Shown: positions 24,983 through 61,708 of the stretch, in pieces
Numbering within the stretch: the stretch's first letter is position 1
Layout: each line of letters begins with the position of its first letter
NCBI GenBank assembly: GCA_021802125.1
Contig: JAKAAX010000004.1
Coordinates: forward strand, 4,560-68,559
Source of the DNA: Thermoplasmata archaeon
GTDB lineage: Archaea; Thermoplasmatota; Thermoplasmata; Lutacidiplasmatales; UBA184
DNA length: 64,000 bases
Direction of reading: 5' to 3'
Made by a program: the position numbers and the translations under genes
The notes under the pieces: model-generated
The model's input: the letters and a program-made list of their open reading frames with translations, nothing else
Told to the model about the DNA's origin: nothing
The model's database searches: none

Positions 24983-26314
24983 TCACGGCATGGAGGTCAC
25001 GATGGCCATGACCACCGTGTCGGAAGCGACCTGCGTGGGGAGGGCGATCCCCGCGAGAAGGTCTGCCTCCGCGAAGTATGCTTCGAGGTAGTTCTGCGTC
25101 GCGTTCACCGCGTCGTAGATCGTCCCGTGGCCCGAGCTCAGGTTCTGCTCGACCTCCGCGGGAGAGAGACCTGTCCCGCTCGCGTTCAGCAGCAGTTGCG
25201 GGTTCTGAAGGGTCCCTAGATGGTAGGCCACGCCCCCGACGACGAGGAAGGGTATCCCTCCCGTCGTGTCGTAGGTGGACACATAGCTGACCTCCGGGAG
25301 TGCGACCGAGGGGATCGAGATCTGTTGATTGTTGGTCCCGACAATGGGGTCCCACGAGAGGATGGGGCTCATGGACCCGGCGCCGGCGAGGTCGATCCCG
25401 GGTGTCCCGGGATAGATGTCGGTGGGAGAGGAGGTGGTGTACTGACTTCCCACCCCGATGCCGAATGCCGTCAAGGCCCGGGCGAGCGCCCAGCTCGACG
25501 CGTCACAGTACGGGCAGGCGTTCGAGCCCAGGAAGAACACGACAGGTCTCCCCTGGTCCATGAAGGGTTCGCACGTCGCGTTCCCGTGCACATTCCACCC
25601 GGCATCGCCCGCTACGGAAGGTCCGGTCGAGAAGCTGCTGACGGGGGCCAACGAACATGAGGCCGTCAGCGGCGTGGGGGTCCGGGTAGCTCCCAGGTAA
25701 TGCCAACCGACGAGTCCGACCGCCAGCCCGGAGGCGAGGATGACCGCGCCGATCGTCAGAATGGCCAGGCTCCTGTGGGCGGGGGATGACAGGCCTCCGA
25801 AGGGCCGCGAGGGCGATGAAGCGCGGCCCCTACGCCGCAGGATCGAGGTACCTGGCACTCCCGCCGCAGCTCCTAAAGTGGGGGTGGTGTCCACGTGCCC
25901 CAGGTGCGAGGCGAGGCTCGTCACCGGTCCCAGGAGGAGGACCGGAAGCAGGGCCCCCGTTCCTCGGCGATCCGCTTGGCGGTGCAGGATCCTTAGCCGC
26001 GTGCCCGCCGGGACGGGCGAGAGCTCGAACACCACGTTCTCGGGGTCCCCCCGGTCAGGCGTCCACTGAAGCTCGAGGCGTCGGGTCGGCAGGCTCTCCA
26101 GGACCGTTCCCCTGACGTGCTGGCGGCGACCGGACTCATCTTGGACCTCGAGGTCGAGGTGCCCCGCAGGTCTCAGCTCGAGAATACCTGGGCCCAACCA
26201 TCGGGACCGAAGAGCGGGATCGACAAGGTAATTCCAGACCACCTCGGGAGGCGCGGGCAGAACGCGGTCGATCTCGACCGCCCCTCCCTCCAACTCGGGA
26301 GCCCCGGCGCTCAT
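24983..26314 (-). CDS. Fusion protein: cytoplasmic SRPBCC/AHSA1-like domain, one TM helix, and extracytoplasmic thioredoxin-fold domain with CPYC motif (paralogue of 43914..45119 and 45282..46475)
   Basis: About 443 aa from the ATG at 26314, which overlaps the arsR stop (ATGA). The track ORF extends to 26407. N-terminal EIDRVLPAPPEVVWNYLVDP..LRSRWLGP is an AHSA1/polyketide-cyclase-like fold. TM helix ILTIGAVILASGLAVGLVGW. C-terminal VVFFLGSNACPYCDASSWALARAL is the classic beta1-CxxC-alpha1 of a Trx fold. Confidence 0.6.
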   Translation of the reverse strand: MSAGAPELEGGAVEIDRVLPAPPEVVWNYLVDPALRSRWLGPGILELRPAGHLDLEVQDESGRRQHVRGTVLESLPTRRLELQWTPDRGDPENVVFELSPVPAGTRLRILHRQADRRGTGALLPVLLLGPVTSLASHLGHVDTTPTLGAAAGVPGTSILRRRGRASSPSRPFGGLSSPAHRSLAILTIGAVILASGLAVGLVGWHYLGATRTPTPLTASCSLAPVSSFSTGPSVAGDAGWNVHGNATCEPFMDQGRPVVFFLGSNACPYCDASSWALARALTAFGIGVGSQYTTSSPTDIYPGTPGIDLAGAGSMSPILSWDPIVGTNNQQISIPSVALPEVSYVSTYDTTGGIPFLVVGGVAYHLGTLQNPQLLLNASGTGLSPAEVEQNLSSGHGTIYDAVNATQNYLEAYFAEADLLAGIALPTQVASDTVVMAIVTSMP

Positions 26315-26643
26315 GACGCGGTCCCTCCTTTGGGCAGGCGCTTTTTGAGCTCGCGCTCCAGAGCACGCACCCTGCGGTTCCAGGACCCGCGGGTACGGTC
26401 CAACCACTCCTCGGTCTCCCGCAGTCCGTCAGGGTTCAGCTGGTAGACGCGACGTTGCGCCTCGGCGCGCACGGAGACGAGGCCCGCCTCCCTCAGCCTT
26501 CGCAGATGCTGGGAGACCGCCGGCTGGCTGAGCTGAAAGGTCCGGACAATCTCACCTGCGGACCTCTCACGTTCGGCCAGGAGCTCCATGATCCGTCGCC
26601 GGGTCGGGTCCGCTAGCGTTTCGAAGGCCAGCACAGCCATCAT
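26311..26643 (-). CDS. arsR: ArsR/SmtB-family transcriptional regulator (winged HTH)
   Basis: 110 aa. LADPTRRRIMELL..SAGEI..FQLSQPAVSQHLRRLREAGLV is a textbook ArsR HTH. ArsR is commonly paired with AHSA1-domain proteins. Confidence 0.85.
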   Translation of the reverse strand: MMAVLAFETLADPTRRRIMELLAERERSAGEIVRTFQLSQPAVSQHLRRLREAGLVSVRAEAQRRVYQLNPDGLRETEEWLDRTRGSWNRRVRALERELKKRLPKGGTAS

Positions 26644-26653
26644 AATGCTACGC

Positions 26654-26677
26654 GAATATAAGTGGATTTGGATATTC
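26654..26677. promoter_or_regulatory. Inverted repeat GAATAT-N12-ATATTC in the AT-rich divergent promoter between arsR and the enoyl-CoA hydratase gene (candidate operator)
   Basis: Perfect 6-bp arms at 26654-26659 and 26672-26677 within an AT-rich island (26644-26754) that also holds TATA-like elements for both flanking genes. Confidence 0.35.
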
Positions 26678-26754
26678 TACTGCCGCCCGTCCGCCCAAGG
26701 GGTCGGTTTTTAATGCCCGCTTCCGTGCCTCGCCCCCGAGGCCAGGTGCGCACC

Positions 26755-27555
26755 ATGACGTACGAACACGTGAACGTGAAGAAGGAAGAGGACGGCGTCG
26801 TCATCCTCTCGCTCAAGAATCCCCCGATGAACGCGCTCTCGACCATCCTCGTCAAGGAGCTCGGAGAGGCGGTGGCGGAGATCGGGAAGGACCGGAGCAA
26901 CCGCGCGGTCGTGCTCACCGGCGAGGGCCAGTACTTCTGCGTCGGCGCCGACGTGAAGGAGATGGCGGCCATGGCCATGTCGGGCAGCTTCCTCGAGGAG
27001 GCCCCCAAGATCGTCGCCAAGGGCCACGAGGTCTTCTCCTCGCTCGAGGCGCTCCCTCAGCCGGTCATCGCCGCCCTCAACGGGATGGCGCTTGGCGGCG
27101 GGCTGGAGCTCGCCATGTCCGCCGACATCCGGATCGCCGGGGACTCGACCAAGCTCGGCGCGCCGGAGGTCACCCTCGGACTCATCCCCGCCTACGGGGG
27201 CACCCAGCGTCTGCCTAAGCTCGTGGGGCTCGCGAAGGCCAACGAGCTCATCCTCACGGGGAGCATGATCCCGGGGCCTGAGGCCCTCAAGATCGGGCTC
27301 GTGAACAAGGTCGTGCCCGCTGGACAGGAGCTCCGGGCGGCGCGCGACCTCGCGCACACCATCGGAGCGAAGTGCTCTCCCCCCGCCGTGTCCGCCGCGA
27401 AGGCCTCCATCCGTCAGGGGCTCGCCAAGTCCCTCACGGAGGGCTTGAAGGGCGAGGCCGAGATCTTCCAGAAGCAGGTCCTCACCTCCGAGGACCTGGC
27501 CGAAGGCATCACCGCGTTCAGCGAGAAGCGCCCGCCCAAGTACAAGGGCAGGTAG
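26755..27555 (+). CDS. Enoyl-CoA hydratase (crotonase family)
   Basis: 266 aa from the ATG at 26755. Crotonase fold motifs VVLTGEGQYFCVGADVKE and ALNGMALGGGLELAMSADIRIA. Confidence 0.9.
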   Translation: MTYEHVNVKKEEDGVVILSLKNPPMNALSTILVKELGEAVAEIGKDRSNRAVVLTGEGQYFCVGADVKEMAAMAMSGSFLEEAPKIVAKGHEVFSSLEALPQPVIAALNGMALGGGLELAMSADIRIAGDSTKLGAPEVTLGLIPAYGGTQRLPKLVGLAKANELILTGSMIPGPEALKIGLVNKVVPAGQELRAARDLAHTIGAKCSPPAVSAAKASIRQGLAKSLTEGLKGEAEIFQKQVLTSEDLAEGITAFSEKRPPKYKGR

Positions 27556-27578
27556 GTCCTCGCGAGAGGGACGAGATC

Positions 27579-28820
27579 ATGGCGACAGCTCAAGAGGCGA
27601 CGATGGAGCACGGCGCGCCGACCATCCAGATGAAGTTCACGGAGGAGCAGAACGCTCTCCGCGAGACCGTCGCGAAGTTCGCCGAAGAGGAGATGGCTCC
27701 CATCCTGGAGGAGATGGACGAGAAGGAGGAGTTCCCGCAGAAGACGGTCCAGCGGATGAAGGAACTCGGGTTCTTCGGCGTCCCCATCCCCGAGGAGTAC
27801 GGGGGCCTGGGGATGGGCAAGGTCGGCTACTGCATCATGCTCGAGGAGCTGTCGAAGTTCGACGCCTCCCACCCGGCCATCCTGGGCGCTCACACCTCGC
27901 TGGGGATGACCCCGCTCCACTACTACGGGACCGAGGAGCAGAAGCAGAAGTTCCTGGTTCCGGCCGCGAAGGGGGAGAAACTGATGGGCTTCTCCCTCAC
28001 CGAGCCGCACAGCGGCTCCGACTCCGGCTCGTTGAAGACCGAGGCGAAGGCCGAGGGCGACTACTGGATCCTCAACGGAAACAAGATCTACGTCACCAAC
28101 GGGAAGGAGGCCGACCAGATCGTCGTGATGGCGGCGAACGACCTCAAGCTCGGTTCGAACGGCGGGATCTCCGCCTTCCTCGTCGAGAAGGGGATGAAGG
28201 GGTTCCGCCTCGGGCGGTGCGAGAAGAAGATGGGGCTGCACGGCACCAGCACCGCGGAGCTCATCTTCGAGAACTGCGCCGTTCCGAAGGAGAACATCAT
28301 CGGCGGGGTGGGGCGCGGATTCTACGTCGCCATGACCGCGCTCGACGTCGGCCGGGTCTCCCTGGGCGCAGGGTCCTGCGGAGGCATCTGGGGTGCGCTC
28401 AACGTCTCGCTCAACTACGCCAACAACCGGATGCAGTTCGACGCCCCGATCGTTCAGTACCAGGCGATCCAGTTCAAGCTCGCCGACATGGCGATGCACC
28501 TGCACGCGCTCCGGACGATGGTCTACCAGGCGGCAGCGTTCCAGGACGGATTGGGCTACGACCCGACGAAGTGGCCTCGCTCGGACCGGCTGAAGAAGTC
28601 GCGGGACAGCGCAGTGATCAAGTGCCTCGGGAGCGAGTGGGCCTCCAAGGCGGTCAACGACGCGCTCCAGATCCACGGCGGGATCGGCTACATCCGCGGG
28701 ACGCCCATCGAGCGCGCCTACCGTGACGCGCGGATCAGCGAGATCTTCGAGGGGACCAACGAGGTCCAGCGGATGATCATCGCTGGGGACCTGATCGGTC
28801 GCGGCGGCTTCGTTCCGTAG
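27579..28820 (+). CDS. Acyl-CoA dehydrogenase (second paralogue)
   Basis: 413 aa from the ATG at 27579. ACAD family. RBS-like GAGAGGG 10 nt upstream. C-terminal FEGTNEVQRMIIA. Confidence 0.9.
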   Translation: MATAQEATMEHGAPTIQMKFTEEQNALRETVAKFAEEEMAPILEEMDEKEEFPQKTVQRMKELGFFGVPIPEEYGGLGMGKVGYCIMLEELSKFDASHPAILGAHTSLGMTPLHYYGTEEQKQKFLVPAAKGEKLMGFSLTEPHSGSDSGSLKTEAKAEGDYWILNGNKIYVTNGKEADQIVVMAANDLKLGSNGGISAFLVEKGMKGFRLGRCEKKMGLHGTSTAELIFENCAVPKENIIGGVGRGFYVAMTALDVGRVSLGAGSCGGIWGALNVSLNYANNRMQFDAPIVQYQAIQFKLADMAMHLHALRTMVYQAAAFQDGLGYDPTKWPRSDRLKKSRDSAVIKCLGSEWASKAVNDALQIHGGIGYIRGTPIERAYRDARISEIFEGTNEVQRMIIAGDLIGRGGFVP

Positions 28821-28874
28821 GGTGGGGAGCGGCGAACGCTCCCTCCCCTCCCCTTCCGAACGCCGACTTCGAGG

Positions 28875-30620
28875 CTAGGGCGTACCGGGCGCTTTCGGCG
28901 CTGCTGGACGGGTCGCCGAGGGGCTGCCGGCGGTCGTGCCCGCAGCGGTCGTGGTCCGGAGCTCCCTCCGAAGGACCTTCCCGACGAGGGTCTTCGGGAG
29001 GCTCTCCCGGAACTCGACGCTCCTCGGGGCCTTGAAGTGCGCGATCCGGGACTTGACGAAATCGATGATCTCCTTCTCCGTGGCGTGGGTCCCGGGCTTC
29101 AGCACCACGAAGGCCTTCACGACCTCCCCTAGGGTGTCCTGCGGAACCCCGATCGCCGCGGCCTCGGAGACGGCGGGATGCTGGTAGAGGATCTCCTCGA
29201 CCTCGCGCGGATAGACGTTGAAGCCGCCGACCAGGATGAGGTCCTTCTTCCGGTCGACGATGTAGGCGTAGCCTTCCTCGTCGATCTTCGCGATGTCGCC
29301 CGTGATGAGCCAGCCGTCCTTGAGGACGTTCGCCGTCTCCTCCGGACGGTTCCAGTACCCGAGCATCACCTGGGGTCCCCGGATCGCGAGCTCGCCCTCC
29401 GCGCCCATGGGAAGTTCCTTCGAGGAGTCGTCTGGGTCCAGGACTTTCGCGTCGGTGGAGGGAAGCGCGAGCCCGATCGACCCGATCTTCTTCTTTCCTG
29501 AAACGGGGTTCGCGTGCGTCGCGGGGGAGGTCTCCGAGAGCCCGTAACCCTCGATGAGGTTCGCACCGGTGAGCTCCTCGAACCGCTTCCAGACCTCCAC
29601 GGGGAGGGGAGCGGAACCGCTGAGACAGATCTTCATACCCCGAAGGTCCGTCTTCCCGGCGTTCGGGTGATTGCAGACCGCGGCGTAGAGCGCGGGAACG
29701 CCGGGCAGCTGCGTCGGACGGTAGGTCACGAGGAACTTGAGGAGCGAGTCGGGCTCCGGGCGGTCGGGGCTGACCACGACGGTGGCTCCGTAGAACAGGG
29801 GGAAGTTCATCGCGACGGTCATCCCGTACACGTGGAAGAACGGGATCACCGCCAGCACCGTCTCGTCGCCTTCGGTGGCTTCGGTGAACCAGGTCCGGGC
29901 CTGGACCGCATTGGCGACCAGGTTCCGGTGTGAGAGCATGGCCGCCTTGGGGCGACCGGTCGTGCCGCCCGTGTACTGGAAGACGGCGACGTCCTTCGCA
30001 GGATCGACGGGGACCCTGGGCGCGCGGGTCTTGGACCTCCGGAGGTCCCGGAACCGCTTGTAGGGGATGCGGGTGGGCAGGCTTGGGTCGAAGCCTTTCT
30101 TCTTGAGCCTGCCGTTCACGACCAGGCTGGGGATGAACGTCGCCTCCTCCTTGAGGCGGCCGACGATCACGATCGGGTGGGGGATCCGGTCCCAGACCTC
30201 CTCGAGCTTATGGGAGAGGAAGTCCAGGGTCACGAGCGCCTTCGCCCCTGAGTCCTTGATGGGGAAGACCAGGTCGTCCCCCAGGTACAGGGGGCTGATC
30301 TGCACCACGGTGAGGCCGAGTCGGAGCGCGGCGAAGTAGCTGATGATGTACTGGGGGCAGTTCGGAAGGTAGAGCGCGACCCGGTCGCCCTTCTTCAATC
30401 CCAGCTCGCTGAACCCTCCAGAGACGCGTTCGATCTCCTCCTGAAGGTGAGGGAAGCTCCACTTCTTGTGATGCCCAGGTGCCAAGGCGAAGACGATCGC
30501 GTCCCGCTGGGGCCACTTCTTCACAGCGGCTTCGAGCATCTCGGGGACCGAGGTGTTCGGGATCTCCACCTCCGCCGGCACTCCCTTGGGGTAGGACTTC
30601 AGCCAGGGGCGCGCTGCCAT
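28875..30620 (-). CDS. fadD: Long-chain fatty-acid--CoA ligase (AMP-dependent synthetase/ligase)
   Basis: About 581 aa from the ATG at 30620. AMP-binding motifs YTGGTTGRPKAAMLSHRN, GYGLSET, and C-terminal KTLVGKVLRREL. Confidence 0.9.
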   Translation of the reverse strand: MAARPWLKSYPKGVPAEVEIPNTSVPEMLEAAVKKWPQRDAIVFALAPGHHKKWSFPHLQEEIERVSGGFSELGLKKGDRVALYLPNCPQYIISYFAALRLGLTVVQISPLYLGDDLVFPIKDSGAKALVTLDFLSHKLEEVWDRIPHPIVIVGRLKEEATFIPSLVVNGRLKKKGFDPSLPTRIPYKRFRDLRRSKTRAPRVPVDPAKDVAVFQYTGGTTGRPKAAMLSHRNLVANAVQARTWFTEATEGDETVLAVIPFFHVYGMTVAMNFPLFYGATVVVSPDRPEPDSLLKFLVTYRPTQLPGVPALYAAVCNHPNAGKTDLRGMKICLSGSAPLPVEVWKRFEELTGANLIEGYGLSETSPATHANPVSGKKKIGSIGLALPSTDAKVLDPDDSSKELPMGAEGELAIRGPQVMLGYWNRPEETANVLKDGWLITGDIAKIDEEGYAYIVDRKKDLILVGGFNVYPREVEEILYQHPAVSEAAAIGVPQDTLGEVVKAFVVLKPGTHATEKEIIDFVKSRIAHFKAPRSVEFRESLPKTLVGKVLRRELRTTTAAGTTAGSPSATRPAAPKAPGTP

Positions 30621-30637
30621 CGACACGGTGTTCGGGA

Positions 30638-30661
30638 AGTGAACGTGGCTATGAACGTTCA
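30638..30661. promoter_or_regulatory. Palindrome GTGAACGT-N8-ACGTTCAC overlapping the predicted fadD promoter (candidate repressor operator)
   Basis: Perfect 8-bp inverted arms. The spacer contains TTCATAG, the TATA-like element for fadD, 18-40 nt upstream of its ATG. Confidence 0.35.
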
Positions 30662-30815
30662 CGTGGAAGGTTTACGCGGATTTTCTGCCCTCGCGATGGG
30701 TGGGAGCCCCGATCCGTCCCTGACCGAGCGTCCGGCGCTTCCCGGTTGCGCATCCCCCCCGTTCGCTCGGCCACGGACATTAAAGGGGAGGCAGGGCGAG
30801 ACCCCGAGGAGGCTC

Positions 30816-43270: not shown

Positions 43271-43843
43271 CTACGCCTCGGGAGCGCCGCCCTCAGCTGG
43301 AGGGATCGTAGCGTCGCGCCCCGCGGAGCTGGCGCTCTTGGAGCCTTTCGAGGGCCGGTCCTGTTCCGCGGGCTCGTCCTGACGCTCTTCCTCAAGGCCG
43401 CGTCGGCGAAGTCGCAGGAGCCCGAGGGCGCAGGCGAGGACCCCGACGTTGGAGAAGTAGGCCCCGAGGCAGATCGGGCAGAAGACGAAGTGATGGGGGT
43501 CGATCAGGAACATCTCGGTGTATCCGAAGCCCACCGACGCCACGACACCAAGGAAGCTCAGTCCCAGGAGCGCCTGGAGGAAGCGCGGGTCGTACGTCCG
43601 GAGGAGGAGGACCTCCACCACCAGCATTGCGACGAAGCCTCCGATCCCGATGGCGTAGTCGGGGACTGGCCCCACGTGAGAATACGCGCTCTGGTCGACG
43701 GCGCCGCACTGGACCCAGGCGTTGACGTTGCAGGTCGACTGGAGGGAGGGGGTCAGGCTCTCCGCCATGGCGTAGAAGCTGAAGGCCAGCCCCACCACGA
43801 GGCAGAGGATGGTCGCTCTGTGGAGGACCTCGGCTGAGACCAT
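43271..43843 (-). CDS. Vitamin K epoxide reductase (VKOR) family membrane thiol oxidoreductase
   Basis: 190 aa from the ATG at 43843 (RBS GGGAG). Four TM core. Loop cysteine pair C-x7-C (TCNVNAWVQC). Active-site CxxC at the start of TM4 (FVFCPICLGAYFSNV), with the Y and N positions aligning to human VKORC1 CIVCITTYAINV. Confidence 0.8.
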   Translation of the reverse strand: MVSAEVLHRATILCLVVGLAFSFYAMAESLTPSLQSTCNVNAWVQCGAVDQSAYSHVGPVPDYAIGIGGFVAMLVVEVLLLRTYDPRFLQALLGLSFLGVVASVGFGYTEMFLIDPHHFVFCPICLGAYFSNVGVLACALGLLRLRRRGLEEERQDEPAEQDRPSKGSKSASSAGRDATIPPAEGGAPEA

Positions 43844-43913
43844 GGCGCTCCCGGTTTCGCGCTCCGCCAAAGCTCCAGACCTTCGTGGCTCAAGAAGTCG
43901 CGGGTTCTCCTGC

Positions 43914-45119
43914 TCAGCTGATACCGTCGAAGACCCCGATGACGTTGGGGTCGTTCTTCACCGCGGGGGGGCCGGCCCCCGCGCCCTGGGCGAGCTGGAC
44001 CGCCTTGAGCATGTAGGCCTCGAGGTAGTACTGCGCTTCGTGGACGGCGCCGTAGACCGGCCCCGTGGTCGAGTTGAGGTCGGCCTGCACCTGTTGCCAG
44101 GTGAGGGGGGTCCCTCCCGAGCCGCCACAGCCGGCGGTGGTGAGACAACCGGGGTCCACGAGGGTACCGATGTGGGCGTAGAGACCGCCCACCATGACGA
44201 AGGGGAGATTGCCGCCGGCGTACGCCTGGATGTAGGCGCCCTCGGGGCAGGAGGGGACCACGGGGCTCACGTGGGCCTGGACCGTCTCCTGGGGGTCCCA
44301 GGAGACGTAGGAGCTTTGCAGGCTCGAACTTGAGTCCAGGACGACCTCGGCGATGCCGACCTGCCCGTTCCCGTAGACATCCCCGGGGTCCGACATCCCG
44401 TAGCTGGTGCCGGTGAGGCTCCCGAACGACTGGAGAGCGCCTTTGAGCGCCCAGCTCGAGGCCGAACAGTACGGACAGGCTGTGGAGCCCCAGTAGAGCA
44501 CGATGGGGGCGTTCCCGTTCGTCCAAACGGGGTTGCTCGATTTCTCCCACGTCCCGCCCCGGTCGAAACCGGGTTCGGGCGAGACGGAAGAGGAGAGGCT
44601 AGGGCAGTGGCTCGCGAGGGAGAAGCCGACGAGCACCAGGCCCACGAGCAGGCCGGCCACGAGGCCGGAGGCGACGTTGCGCTTCCAGTTCCGGACCGAC
44701 TCCCGGCTCGCGACCACGAAGCTCGCTCCGAGCAGGACCACGCCGATGACCGCCACCACGGCGACCGCGGTGAACGGGACGATCGCCACGACGATGGGCC
44801 ACTCCAGACTGAGGACGAGAGGGACCGCCCCCGCGAGCGCCACAAGGGTGCCGACGAAGGCGACACGGCGCCACGTGGCCTTCTTGCGGGTCTCCGCCGA
44901 GCGCCCCTCCCGGGAGCGCCCGGCACCCTCGGTCCTGGGCGCGCCGGAGCGCATCGCCCGGCTGAGCTTCGAGCGACGTTGAAGGTAGAGAGCCTTCAGC
45001 GCGAGGCCCGGACGGCCCGAACCGGAGGGCGGGGAGAAGCCGACCTTCTCGTCGGCGGCGATCTCCTCCCAGCTCAGTCCCTTCCTGCGGAGCCGTTCCA
45101 CGCGGTCCCAGTCGGTCAT
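43914..45119 (-). CDS. Membrane protein: cytoplasmic HTH-like N-terminus + 3 TM + extracytoplasmic thioredoxin-fold CPYC domain (tandem paralogue 1)
   Basis: 401 aa. N-terminal MTDWDRVERLRRKGLSWEEIAADEKV (sigma-70 region-4/terminase-like HTH). Three TM helices. Ectodomain with IVLYWGSTACPYCSASSWALKGAL (DsbA/Grx-like beta1-CxxC-alpha1) plus extra Cys pairs. Confidence 0.65.
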   Translation of the reverse strand: MTDWDRVERLRRKGLSWEEIAADEKVGFSPPSGSGRPGLALKALYLQRRSKLSRAMRSGAPRTEGAGRSREGRSAETRKKATWRRVAFVGTLVALAGAVPLVLSLEWPIVVAIVPFTAVAVVAVIGVVLLGASFVVASRESVRNWKRNVASGLVAGLLVGLVLVGFSLASHCPSLSSSVSPEPGFDRGGTWEKSSNPVWTNGNAPIVLYWGSTACPYCSASSWALKGALQSFGSLTGTSYGMSDPGDVYGNGQVGIAEVVLDSSSSLQSSYVSWDPQETVQAHVSPVVPSCPEGAYIQAYAGGNLPFVMVGGLYAHIGTLVDPGCLTTAGCGGSGGTPLTWQQVQADLNSTTGPVYGAVHEAQYYLEAYMLKAVQLAQGAGAGPPAVKNDPNVIGVFDGIS

Positions 45120-45281: not shown

Positions 45282-46475
45282 CTAGGTGATGGCCTGGAAA
45301 TCTCCAGAGGCCGGAGAGTTAGGGTTCGTGACCACGCTAGGCAGGGGGAGCCCCGCCAACTGGTCGGCCTTCCCCATGTACGCTTCAAGCCAGAACTGGG
45401 CGGGTAAGATCGCGCTGCACACCGCGTTCTGGTTCGGGTTGTTCCCGCACGACGCGAGGTCGGAGGCCACGACCTGGGGGCTGTAGGGGGTACCCTGCGG
45501 CGAGAGAAGGGCGGGGTTGACCAGGCTGCCCGTGTGCATGAAGACCCCACCGACCACCACGAAGGGGATCCCTCCCTGGGTGTTGTACTGGGCCACGTAC
45601 GCCGACTCCGGGCAACCGACGTTCGGGACCGTGATCTGGGTGTCGTCCGCGCCCTCGTGGGGGTCCCAGCTGATGTAGGTGCTCGAGACCGAGGAGGAGA
45701 CGAAGTTGACCTCGGGGGTGTTCGGGTAGACATCCGTCGAGCTCGAGGTACCCATCGAGACGCCGCTCATGGAGGAGGAGACGTTCAACAGAGCGCCTTT
45801 GAGCGCCCAGCTCGAGGCCGAGCAATAGGGACAGGCGATGGAGCCCAGGTAGAAGACCACCGGCGCACCGTTCTGAGACCACACGGGGTTGTCCGCGCGG
45901 ATCCAGCCCGTGTCCCCTGCCGGACCGGGCTCCCCGTTCTTCGTCTGCGCGAGGTTGGGGCAGCCCTGGGAGAGCGAGACGGACGCCAGGACACCGGCCA
46001 GCACGATCCCTAGGATGACCCCTGCGATGACCCCGCCCTTCCACATCGCGAGGGCCCTGCCGCTGCCGGCGATGAACGCGGCACCGAGCAGGATGCCTCC
46101 GACCGCGGCCACCACGACGAGGGCAAGCTGGGGCACCAGGTAGACGATGAGGCGGAGCTCGAAGCTCAAGAGCAGCGGGATGGCTCCCGCGAGGGCGACG
46201 AGGATCCCCAAGAACGCGGTGGTGCGGAAGATCTTCCTCTTCGTCCATCCGCCCTTCGCGCCGCTTCCCGACCCTCCGGAGGCTCCGCCCGTCTCCGAGC
46301 CGCCCTTGGCCTGACGGCGGGTGCGCGACCGGCGCTGGAAGTAGAGCGCCTTGAGGGCGAGCCCGGGCTTCTCCGTCCCCTCGGGGGGCTTGAACTCGAC
46401 CCGGTCGTCGGCCGCGATCTCGTCCCAGCTCTGGCCCCGTCCCCGAAGCCTCTCGACGCGTTCCCAGTCCGTCAT
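45282..46475 (-). CDS. Membrane protein: cytoplasmic HTH-like N-terminus + 3 TM + extracytoplasmic thioredoxin-fold CPYC domain (tandem paralogue 2)
   Basis: 397 aa. N-terminus MTDWERVERLRGRGQSWDEIAADDRV is nearly identical to paralogue 1. VVFYLGSIACPYCSASSWALKGAL. Same architecture. Confidence 0.65.
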   Translation of the reverse strand: MTDWERVERLRGRGQSWDEIAADDRVEFKPPEGTEKPGLALKALYFQRRSRTRRQAKGGSETGGASGGSGSGAKGGWTKRKIFRTTAFLGILVALAGAIPLLLSFELRLIVYLVPQLALVVVAAVGGILLGAAFIAGSGRALAMWKGGVIAGVILGIVLAGVLASVSLSQGCPNLAQTKNGEPGPAGDTGWIRADNPVWSQNGAPVVFYLGSIACPYCSASSWALKGALLNVSSSMSGVSMGTSSSTDVYPNTPEVNFVSSSVSSTYISWDPHEGADDTQITVPNVGCPESAYVAQYNTQGGIPFVVVGGVFMHTGSLVNPALLSPQGTPYSPQVVASDLASCGNNPNQNAVCSAILPAQFWLEAYMGKADQLAGLPLPSVVTNPNSPASGDFQAIT

Positions 46476-60948: not shown

Positions 60949-61036
60949 GGAAAAGCCACGAGCTATCCTTTAGCACGGCGGGGGACGCCACCCGGGACCA
61001 CACTTATATTGCCACGGCGACCATAGTCACTTCAGG

Positions 61037-61708
61037 ATGGGGCAGAAGGTCCCCGCGAGCATTTCGGGTGCTCGTAGGGTCTCCCTGAAAGGTCCGCTAC
61101 CGCTCGAAAACGTGGGGCTCAAAACGAACGCCAGGTCCAGGGTTGCCGAGACCCGGGCCGAAGCCCCCCGCCCAAGCGGTAGTACGGCGGCCGTCGACCT
61201 GCCATCGCTCTCGCGGGCGATCCGCCGGGCGGTGGGCCATGACGGCATGCGGCGAGAGGACGCGGACGCGATCGCGGGCCATATCCTGAACTTCTTCGGC
61301 TTCAACGAACGGATCATCGACAACGTTCTGGAGCCTGACGACCGAGACACGTTCTACATGCTCGAGGACTCCGGCATCCTCGAGACCGAGCGCGACGAGA
61401 CCACGCTCTACGACGGCCGGGAGTGGCGGATCCACTACTGGATGTTCCGGAAGGACCGCATCCTCCAGCTGGCCAAGGAGGAGGCCGACGCCTCCCCCGA
61501 AGAGAAGGAGGAGGAGGTCCCGATCGCCCCGCTCCCCCGCGTCAGCGCCCCTACCCCCCTCGTCGTCCCCACCGCAGACTCCTCCGTCTACCACCACCTT
61601 TCCGACGAGGCGTGGGGGAAGCGGGAGGAGGAGGGCGAGGAGGCCGAGTCGCCCCAGCTCTCCCTGCCCAACTCGCGCTTCACGCGCGCACCGCTCTCGC
61701 CGGGTTGA
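61037..61708 (+). CDS. Hypothetical protein with acidic C-terminal tail
   Basis: 223 aa. Conserved-looking core AIAGHILNFFGFNERIIDNVLEPDDRDTFYMLEDSGILETERDETTLYDGREWRIHYW. Glu-rich C-terminus. Confidence 0.45.
   Translation: MGQKVPASISGARRVSLKGPLPLENVGLKTNARSRVAETRAEAPRPSGSTAAVDLPSLSRAIRRAVGHDGMRREDADAIAGHILNFFGFNERIIDNVLEPDDRDTFYMLEDSGILETERDETTLYDGREWRIHYWMFRKDRILQLAKEEADASPEEKEEEVPIAPLPRVSAPTPLVVPTADSSVYHHLSDEAWGKREEEGEEAESPQLSLPNSRFTRAPLSPG

Follow-up and report, generated by a model that had tools for sequence, protein, structure and literature searches.

An ArsR-family gene overlapping the gene for a predicted AHSA1–transmembrane–DUF929 fusion protein in a Thermoplasmata archaeon: a candidate membrane-anchored form of the ArsR–COG3832 module

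The two-gene module comprising an ArsR-family regulator and a COG3832 (AHSA1/SRPBCC) protein was defined by Makarova, Wolf and Koonin in 2009 and flagged among the most frequent prokaryotic two-gene modules. COG3832 was the most frequent neighbour of ArsR genes (259-280 occurrences), the two genes occurred "strictly as unique pairs", and the ArsR subfamily involved lacked metal-binding motifs (PMC2701414). One member has been characterised: Rv2034 of Mycobacterium tuberculosis is co-transcribed and overlaps with the AHSA1 gene Rv2035. The Rv2034 protein is a dimer that represses its own transcription, recognises CCGTAAGT-N4-ACTTACGG, a palindrome containing ACTTA, and is insensitive to seven metals (PMC3338718). 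Membrane control of an ArsR-family autorepressor has been described separately for SdpR, which is controlled by membrane capture in the SdpR-SdpI system (PMC2910880). Here, a pair of the ArsR–COG3832 kind was analysed in 64,000 nucleotides of a Thermoplasmata archaeon (the window; contig JAKAAX010000004.1 of assembly GCA_021802125.1, positions 4,560 to 68,559). In this pair the AHSA1 domain is predicted to be the cytoplasmic head of a membrane protein carrying an extracytoplasmic thioredoxin-fold domain. The locus had been singled out in an earlier reading of the sequence, referred to below as the original prediction. Coordinates are window positions, and related loci and proteins are given by L and P numbers.

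The fusion gene (24983..26314, minus strand) encodes 443 aa plus stop from ATG 26314 and comprises an AHSA1 head, a linker, a single transmembrane (TM) helix and a DUF929 ectodomain. The predicted cytoplasmic head, an AHSA1/SRPBCC helix-grip domain at residues 12-139 (25898..26281, minus strand), was assigned from Pfam, an AlphaFold2 (AF2) model and Foldseek. The SRPBCC assignment passed the hidden Markov model search, PF08327 matching residues 21-117 with an E-value of 5.5e-12 and 46.4 bits (gathering threshold 22.1). The AF2 model was built on a 53-sequence alignment and had a mean predicted local distance difference test (pLDDT) score of 82. Residues 12-113 of the head were modelled confidently, with block-mean pLDDT mostly above 90 (89-96 across residues 11-110), in a beta-alpha-alpha-beta6 layout followed by a short C-terminal helix at 128-139. 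When the whole model was searched against the PDB with Foldseek, the top matches were all AHSA1/SRPBCC proteins (E-values down to 3.5e-9), including 3q63, 1z94, CalU16 (4fpw), DynU16 (6v04) and bacterial Aha1-domain proteins. The head contains neither cysteine nor N-glycosylation sequons.

The head is joined to the membrane segment by a predicted disordered, low-complexity linker (residues 140-177; 25784..25897, minus strand), with pLDDT below 50 at residues 142-170 and 172-176, which ends in a basic RRRGR patch. The predicted TM helix, a signal anchor of N-in/C-out orientation, covers residues 183-204 (25703..25768, minus strand). It has a Kyte-Doolittle maximum of 2.41, lies within an AF2 helix at 178-207 and carries the RRRGR patch on its N-terminal side. 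The predicted extracytoplasmic domain (residues 215-443; 24986..25672, minus strand) matched DUF929 (PF06053) with an E-value of 1.2e-14 and 54.9 bits (gathering threshold 24.6) and was modelled confidently by AF2; more than half of its 229 residues are family-specific. The CPYC motif (residues 267-270; 25505-25516) was invariant in six fusion orthologues and was placed by AF2 at the N-terminus of the first long helix of the thioredoxin-fold domain. P355, an invariant residue of an "IPF" motif, directly precedes strand 356-359 of the predicted model, at the position expected for the cis-Pro loop. A second cysteine pair, C220/C248 (nt ~25571-25657), lies upstream of CPYC, was likewise invariant in all six orthologues and may form a disulfide, structural or regulatory, that is peculiar to the fusion clade.

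An N-in/C-out topology was assigned because basic residues precede the TM helix, because sequons are distributed asymmetrically and because cysteines occur only in the ectodomain. In each of the six orthologues, 2-4 Lys and Arg residues were counted before the TM helix and 0-1 after it; 3-7 N-X-S/T sequons were found in the ectodomain and 0-1 in the head; and every cysteine (4 or 6 per protein) lay in the ectodomain. The fusion is thus predicted to be a type-II membrane protein with its AHSA1 head in the cytoplasm and its DUF929 domain facing outward. The three-part layout given in the original prediction was borne out (PF08327, one hydrophobic segment and PF06053), with the location of each part being predicted. 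A thiol relay across the membrane was ruled out, since the head and TM helix are free of cysteine, and any transmembrane signal would therefore have to be conformational, oligomeric or proteolytic.

The arsR gene (26311..26643, minus strand; 110 aa from the first in-frame ATG at 26643) overlaps the fusion gene. Its TGA stop (26313-26311) shares nucleotides with the fusion ATG (26314-26312), giving ATGA at 26311-26314. A Shine-Dalgarno-like GGAGG (26324..26328, minus strand) precedes ATG 26314 by 9 nt and so falls inside arsR, near its 3' end; GGAG(G) counterparts were found 6-10 nt before the fusion start in L001, L003, L051, L052 and L053. Read from the sequence, the fusion gene is translationally coupled to arsR through the ATGA overlap, as had been proposed. 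The position of ATG 26314 was conserved in five orthologue clusters (as GTG in L052). A start at GTG 26407 was ruled out: it would overlap arsR by 97 nt, while the MSA... N-terminus, the Shine-Dalgarno motif and the 4-nt overlap are kept in all orthologues.

A word-index homology search with the full fusion protein returned three proteins; the others emerged only from an exhaustive search of 1.84 billion representative proteins. In that set the AHSA1–TM–DUF929 architecture was present in five 50%-identity clusters, P0002 (the cluster of the window protein), P0003, P0004, P0005 and P0008, at 31-91% identity to the window protein. P0001 is identical to the window fusion, and public databases list the proteins as "SRPBCC domain-containing protein". 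Fusion loci were recovered as L001/L002, L003-L005, L051, L052 and L053. In every one an ArsR gene stood directly before the fusion gene and overlapped it by 4 nt, and an internal GGAG(G) was present; the overlap read ATGA (GTGA in L052), and the MSA... N-termini were conserved. In four lineages (the window, L003, L001/L002 and L053) the pair diverges from genes for enoyl-CoA hydratase (ECH) and acyl-CoA dehydrogenase (ACAD) and has the same housekeeping flanks, so common ancestry could account for that arrangement. Neighbours in the window, which has a G+C content of 68.5%, include a Bud32-type kinase, eIF-1A, agmatinase and YjeF; these traits indicate an archaeal source, and the nearest genomes are metagenome-assembled genomes of Thermoplasmata. 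The ArsR-fusion pair of L051 and L052 stands amid different neighbours, with a divergent DUF929 gene in L052. Its persistence there argues that the pair is conserved as a unit, independent of context.

Two relatives with an ArsR-coupled AHSA1 domain lack DUF929. P0089 (L054 4633-6749; L055 714-2830), from metagenome SRR28211892, which is also the source of the L052 DUF929 fusion, is coupled to an ArsR gene by a 4-nt overlap and has an AHSA1 head and a TM helix followed by an unrelated ectodomain of ~370 aa. This ectodomain is rich in Ser, Thr and Gly and had no Pfam match. By its predicted domain layout, P0089 represents a second ectodomain type on one ArsR/AHSA1/TM cytoplasmic module, and a sensor would be expected to vary in just this way, with its outer domain exchanged while the cytoplasmic part stays constant. 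The nearest soluble AHSA1 protein, P0142 (145 aa, 44% identity, no TM helix), is likewise encoded directly after an ArsR gene that its own gene overlaps by 4 nt, which points to descent of the fusion from the canonical module. The co-directional order of arsR then AHSA1 was seen in L001, L003, L051, L052, L053, L054 and L057. Close AHSA1 relatives are not all paired, as no ArsR gene adjoined that of P0069, a tandem AHSA1 protein.

The distribution of the gene was also weighed against a role in antibiotic self-resistance or as a toxin-antitoxin-like module. Self-sacrifice resistance proteins of this kind include CalC and CalU16, and CalU16 and DynU16 are among the structural neighbours of the head. 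The ArsR–COG3832 pair was moreover included among toxin-antitoxin-like pairs in 2009, although its status as a bona fide toxin-antitoxin system was doubted by those same authors (PMC2701414). The gene studied here is single-copy and chromosomal, keeps its synteny across relatives of 40-91% identity, and encodes a 443-aa membrane protein instead of a small soluble toxin, so that a module of this type is considered very improbable.

The regulator was identified as a winged-helix ArsR/SmtB-family repressor. It matched Pfam HTH_5 (PF01022) with an E-value of 1.4e-19 and 70.1 bits (gathering threshold 22) and NCBIfam HTH_metalloreg (NF033788) with 89.4 bits (cutoff 55); the curated thresholds of HTH_5-type winged-helix models were thus exceeded and the original family call was upheld. 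It scored ~41 bits against the BigR, CmtR and TsoR models (cutoffs 115-155) and 76.7 bits against the SdpR model NF033789, under the cutoff of 100. Its sequence is free of cysteine and contains one histidine, located in the recognition helix; cysteine was absent from all six orthologues. Inspection of the sequence for metal sites revealed no alpha3/alpha3N CxC motif, no alpha5 His/Asp/Glu site and no BigR-type cysteine pair. A C-terminal helix (W...LE.E) is common to the orthologues and to the ArsR partner of soluble P0142. Judged by these features, the regulator is a member of the non-metal subfamily that pairs with COG3832/AHSA1. AHSA1 had been named in the original prediction as the commonest ArsR partner, in agreement with COG3832 being the top neighbour with 280 occurrences (PMC2701414).

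These features bear directly on the circuit that had been proposed at the outset, in which a metal(loid)- or thiol-redox-sensing ArsR would derepress the CPYC protein on metal binding or oxidation. Membership of the ArsR/SmtB family is compatible with such a sensor, as is the weak resemblance to the BigR and CmtR models (~41 bits, where the cutoffs are 150-155). Set against it are the lack of cysteine, the placement of the sole histidine in the recognition helix, and the absence of an alpha3 CxC or alpha5 site, together with a subfamily devoid of metal motifs (PMC2701414) and the insensitivity of Rv2034 to Zn, Ni, Co, Cd, Pb, Cu and Mn (PMC3338718). A metal or redox sensor role for this ArsR is therefore unsupported, and the proposed circuit was set aside as highly unlikely.

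The CPYC domain had been taken to be novel. It belongs to Pfam DUF929, which was placed in the thioredoxin-like clan by HHpred and FFAS in 2010 (PMC3091736), and three DUF929 proteins have been found experimentally in the secretome of Picrophilus torridus (PMC8345856). The thioredoxin fold and the outward location predicted here agree with these two reports. The window encodes two further members. Paralogue 1 (45282..46475, minus strand; PF06053 E-value 1.4e-12) has a cytoplasmic head of ~55 aa, three TM helices and a DUF929 domain with CPYC; paralogue 2 (43914..45119, minus strand; E-value 1.6e-11) has the same architecture and lies immediately upstream of a VKOR gene. All three window members exceeded the Pfam gathering threshold. 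Their homology, which had been claimed originally, was confirmed on alignment: the three CPYC domains share 36-43% identity and 64 invariant columns, the domain of the fusion being 43% identical to that of paralogue 1 and 36% to that of paralogue 2. C248 of the fusion has no counterpart in the VKOR-linked paralogues and C220 aligns with their C172, and the second cysteine pair is thus absent from them. Across ~130 DUF929 relatives from the exhaustive search CP[YF]C was nearly invariant, and C53, P54 and C56 were nearly invariant in 89 relatives.

DUF929 domains were found on several kinds of anchor, in line with the modular family that had been suggested. In the usual form, DUF929 is preceded by a short N-terminal tail (0-60 aa) and a single TM helix. 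In one subgroup from Thermoplasmata, to which both window paralogues belong, a highly conserved head of ~55 aa is combined with three TM helices. The head (46311-46475 and 44955-45119, minus strand) reads M[TV]DW[DE]RVERLR.KG..W..IA.D.KV.F....G....G.ALKALY..RRS and is present in at least 20 representative clusters. It gave nothing meaningful against Pfam even at E<=10, and a guess that it is a helix-turn-helix was dropped for want of Pfam support. Rarer forms carry a Zn-ribbon-like head (P0020) or a C-terminal winged helix-turn-helix after a second TM helix (P0058). In P0058 (L056 1202-2437) DUF929 lies between two TM helices and is followed by a C-terminal cytoplasmic winged helix (HTH_45, E-value 2e-6); from this layout, the protein may act as a membrane-bound one-component regulator in which DUF929 is the sensor. 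DUF929 was also observed outside this group (L033 2014-4429; L021, L022, L028 and others). Among Actinomycetota, one Streptosporangiaceae metagenome-assembled genome carries three copies in tandem, and a weak VKOR match adjoins DUF929 in L028; further occurrences were in Bacillota, Micrarchaeota, Nitrosotalea and Sulfolobales. Its presence in bacterial phyla indicates that the family is not limited to archaea.

The VKOR homologue of the window (43271..43870, minus strand; 199 aa; PF07884 E-value 8e-20) has a CPIC motif, a loop cysteine pair and no fused thioredoxin domain; its cysteines are at positions 47, 55, 131 and 134. When the window proteins were searched by tblastn against the fetched loci, DUF929 with the conserved head, three TM helices and CPYC was found immediately before a stand-alone VKOR gene in 11 other Thermoplasmata loci (L008, L009, L010, L012, L013, L015, L016, L017, L018, L025 and L031), making 12 pairs. 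L012 has two tandem DUF929-VKOR pairs, and in several loci, as in the window, one VKOR gene is preceded by two DUF929 genes. From this gene order and from the lack of a fused thioredoxin domain in VKOR, DUF929 is the obvious candidate for a DsbA-like partner of VKOR, and the window VKOR is the likely re-oxidant of the DUF929 domains. The order makes DUF929 a candidate for the DsbA-type partner that archaeal VKOR has so far lacked, and so bears on archaeal oxidative folding.

An enzymatic explanation of the fusion draws on this link. The fusion would then be an accessory-domain enzyme without a signalling role: DUF929 would be a specialised extracytoplasmic oxidoreductase, the tethered head would bind a hydrophobic compound of the membrane (a quinone or lipid, for example) in the manner of CoxG and COQ10, and ArsR would be a plain autorepressor with an effector of its own. 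The head is modelled as a complete helix-grip fold, hydrophobic molecules are ligands of SRPBCC domains, CoxG, itself anchored in the membrane, binds menaquinone and shuttles it (PMC13525633), and VKOR, the presumed partner of DUF929, is a quinone reductase. This account leaves the coupled ArsR of every copy, P0089 included, unexplained. It also has to reconcile the separation of head and ectodomain by the membrane with the absence of any cysteine or cofactor path that would connect them, and the cavity of Rv2035 has been judged too small for lipids or quinones (PMC13525633). A purely enzymatic role is therefore regarded as somewhat unlikely.

The promoter of arsR was examined by alignment of orthologous upstream regions. 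A TATA-like box, CCACTTATATTCG (26653..26665, minus strand), contains a box, ACTTATATT[CA]G (CCTTATATTCG in L003), that was conserved in 6/6 orthologous arsR promoters; its core, ACTTATATT, reads CCTTATATT in L003. The end of the box was fixed 20-21 nt before the start codon in every orthologous locus, and TTAT was conserved ~8 nt upstream of the arsR start in the six promoters. Archaeal TATA boxes are centred near -26, so the box-to-start spacing implies a leaderless arsR mRNA. The ArsR orthologues of L001, L051, L052 and L053 are each 107 aa in length, with the first residue aligned to GTG 26634. Given these orthologues and the conserved spacing, the true start of arsR is most likely GTG 26634 (107 aa, leaderless) and not ATG 26643, and arsR and the fusion gene probably form a leaderless bicistronic operon driven by the TATA-like box 20 nt upstream of GTG 26634. 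The 9-mer ACTTATATT recurs at 61002-61010 (plus strand), 26 nt upstream of an unrelated 223-aa open reading frame (61037..61708). Because it is present at an unrelated promoter, the core was taken as a TATA box or generic promoter element rather than an operator; it appears to be a consensus-like TATA element of this host and could aid promoter annotation.

An inverted repeat, GAATAT-N12-ATATTC (26654..26677), had been proposed as a plausible ArsR operator. The repeat is present as described, overlaps the transcription factor B recognition element (BRE)/TATA region and occurs once, as an exact pattern, in the 64-kb window. An ArsR operator overlapping BRE/TATA is plausible as a candidate. Placement of an operator over BRE/TATA is a classic archaeal mode of repression. 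Among shuffles of the 111-nt intergenic region, 30% held at least one 6-nt inverted repeat with a spacer of 4-20 nt, and at a chance probability of 0.30 the repeat is not significant on its own. Its right arm ATATTC lies in the TATA-like box and its left arm GAATAT was kept only in L003, a 91% relative, in which both arms are intact and extended to 7 nt with 2/12 spacer bases changed. L001 and L053 have a different repeat, ATAAG-N6-CTTAT, which shares the dyad axis and can also be read, in our alignment, as TAAGN-N4-ACTTA. No convincing symmetry was seen in the aligned L051 promoter, and when a shared inverted-repeat operator was sought across the six promoters, no one register fitted all.

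On the other side of the 111-bp intergenic region lies the promoter of the divergent ECH and ACAD genes, with a TATA-like box, TTTTTAAT (26707..26714, plus strand), upstream of the ECH start ATG 26755. The two TATA-like boxes are ~50 bp apart. The ECH call is based on an ECH_1 match of 6.4e-61, and the window, L003, L001 and L053 all keep (C/G)(A/C)TTAAAA(A/G), as read on the arsR-sense strand. A beta-oxidation-type cluster (window 26755-30662; L003 1-7560) is divergent from arsR in 4/6 lineages and comprises enoyl-CoA hydratase, acyl-CoA dehydrogenase and acyl-CoA synthetase genes, with a thiolase further out in L003.

ArsR–AHSA1 could accordingly be read as a lipid or acyl-CoA sensor of the divergent beta-oxidation genes (ECH, ACAD and acyl-CoA synthetase), to which the DUF929 fusion would be incidental. 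The 111-bp region is shared by arsR and ECH-ACAD in the window, L003, L001/L002 and L053, and in M. tuberculosis palmitate raises Rv2034 expression and Rv2035 has been suggested to have a lipid-related function (PMC3338718). Different genes adjoin the pair in L051 and in L052, where the divergent gene encodes DUF929. The four ECH-linked loci are closest kin (ArsR identity 77-98%) in which Bud32, YjeF and eIF1A are also syntenic, so that inherited gene order suffices to explain the association, and the inverted repeat is ~30 bp from the ECH TATA box. A lipid-sensing role was for these reasons considered improbable.

The reading we favour, tentatively and at somewhat less than an even chance, is that of a membrane-anchored variant of the ArsR–COG3832 module, which by analogy would work like a pair of an extracytoplasmic function (ECF) sigma factor and its single-pass anti-sigma factor. 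An ArsR dimer would repress its own leaderless operon, bound across the BRE/TATA region. The AHSA1 head would be its cognate protein partner at the membrane and would hold or release ArsR depending on the condition of the ectodomain. This outer domain would act as a DsbA-like thiol-disulfide oxidoreductase, with the VKOR encoded at 43.3 kb maintaining it in oxidised form, and the circuit would report or adjust extracytoplasmic disulfide-forming capacity.

Several observations speak for a membrane-anchored ArsR partner. The pairing with a 107-aa ArsR, with its 4-nt overlap, is found in all five fusion clusters irrespective of synteny. The regulator lacks an intrinsic sensor, matching the COG3832-linked subfamily and Rv2034. 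The predicted topology, the thioredoxin fold with its DsbA-like neighbours and the adjacency of DUF929 and VKOR elsewhere are also consistent with it, and P0058 provides another direct link between DUF929 and a DNA-binding domain. The predicted cavity of Rv2035 is very small, and small-cavity SRPBCC members have been described as "possibly more regulatory" (PMC13525633). Other points weigh against this reading. Binding of ArsR to AHSA1 is supported by no evidence here or in the literature. The operator is no more than a candidate, as its left half-site is not conserved in orthologues and its right half is the TATA box. The fusion paralogue is itself not adjacent to VKOR, six sequences are too few for co-evolution analysis, and the translational coupling could reflect mere co-expression.

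A more specific form, in which the AHSA1 head is a tethered anti-repressor and the redox or occupancy state of the CPYC domain (itself coupled to VKOR and the quinone pool) controls capture and release of ArsR at the membrane, is judged unlikely. If true, it would provide a first mechanism for ArsR–COG3832, with AHSA1 as the protein partner of ArsR and not a ligand carrier, and would describe a first archaeal envelope disulfide-stress signalling pathway with DUF929 as an archaeal DsbA analogue. To our knowledge, the ArsR–COG3832 pair is still without a known mechanism. Placement of AHSA1 at the membrane with an exchangeable ectodomain argues for a signalling partner of the repressor over a free ligand carrier, and the fusion is a natural experiment which makes the function of ArsR–AHSA1 testable, having a defined inside, outside and output.

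In a full-text literature search on DUF929 and on ArsR with AHSA1/SRPBCC, the AHSA1–TM–DUF929 fusion was not described, and almost nothing mechanistic was found on ArsR with SRPBCC or AHSA1. The parts are all known (ArsR–COG3832, AHSA1, DUF929 and VKOR); an AHSA1 partner fused to a TM helix and DUF929 appears to be undescribed. In common with the ArsR–COG3832 module, the locus has co-directional arsR and AHSA1 genes with overlapping coding sequences, and an ArsR without metal motifs and with a C-terminal helical extension. The AHSA1 partner of that module is a small, soluble protein standing alone (~140-160 aa), whereas here it forms the head of a 443-aa single-pass membrane protein. Unlike Rv2034-Rv2035, the pair has an archaeal host and a predicted leaderless, TATA-driven promoter. 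The TAAGN-N4-ACTTA reading in L001 and L053 has the same geometry as the Rv2034 operator, while the window promoter lacks the TAAG inner half-site. A 443-aa membrane partner and a single-copy, chromosomal position in conserved synteny also set the pair apart from type II toxin-antitoxin systems.

On the DUF929 side, typical members have a short anchor and a TM helix, whereas the form with an AHSA1 head occurs in five 50%-identity clusters only. The window paralogues resemble the DsbA/MdbA-VKOR pairs of Actinobacteria, and DsbA-DsbB, in that the gene for a predicted extracytoplasmic thioredoxin-fold CxxC protein stands beside that for a stand-alone VKOR; the fusion paralogue differs in not being next to VKOR, and most of the DUF929 domain is family-specific. 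CoxG likewise holds an SRPBCC domain at the cytoplasmic side of the membrane through a TM segment at its C-terminus, but it has neither an ectodomain nor an ArsR partner, and its SRPBCC subfamily is a different one, whose cavity is very large (PMC13525633). Unlike multi-pass SdpI, the fusion has one TM helix and no SdpI domain, and its ArsR scored below the SdpR cutoff. The partner being an AHSA1 helix-grip domain, the likeness to SdpR-SdpI and to ECF sigma/anti-sigma pairs is an analogy of logic only; within that analogy, the locus would share with these systems a regulator gene placed first and coupled to an N-in membrane protein with a cytoplasmic partner domain and a variable outer domain.

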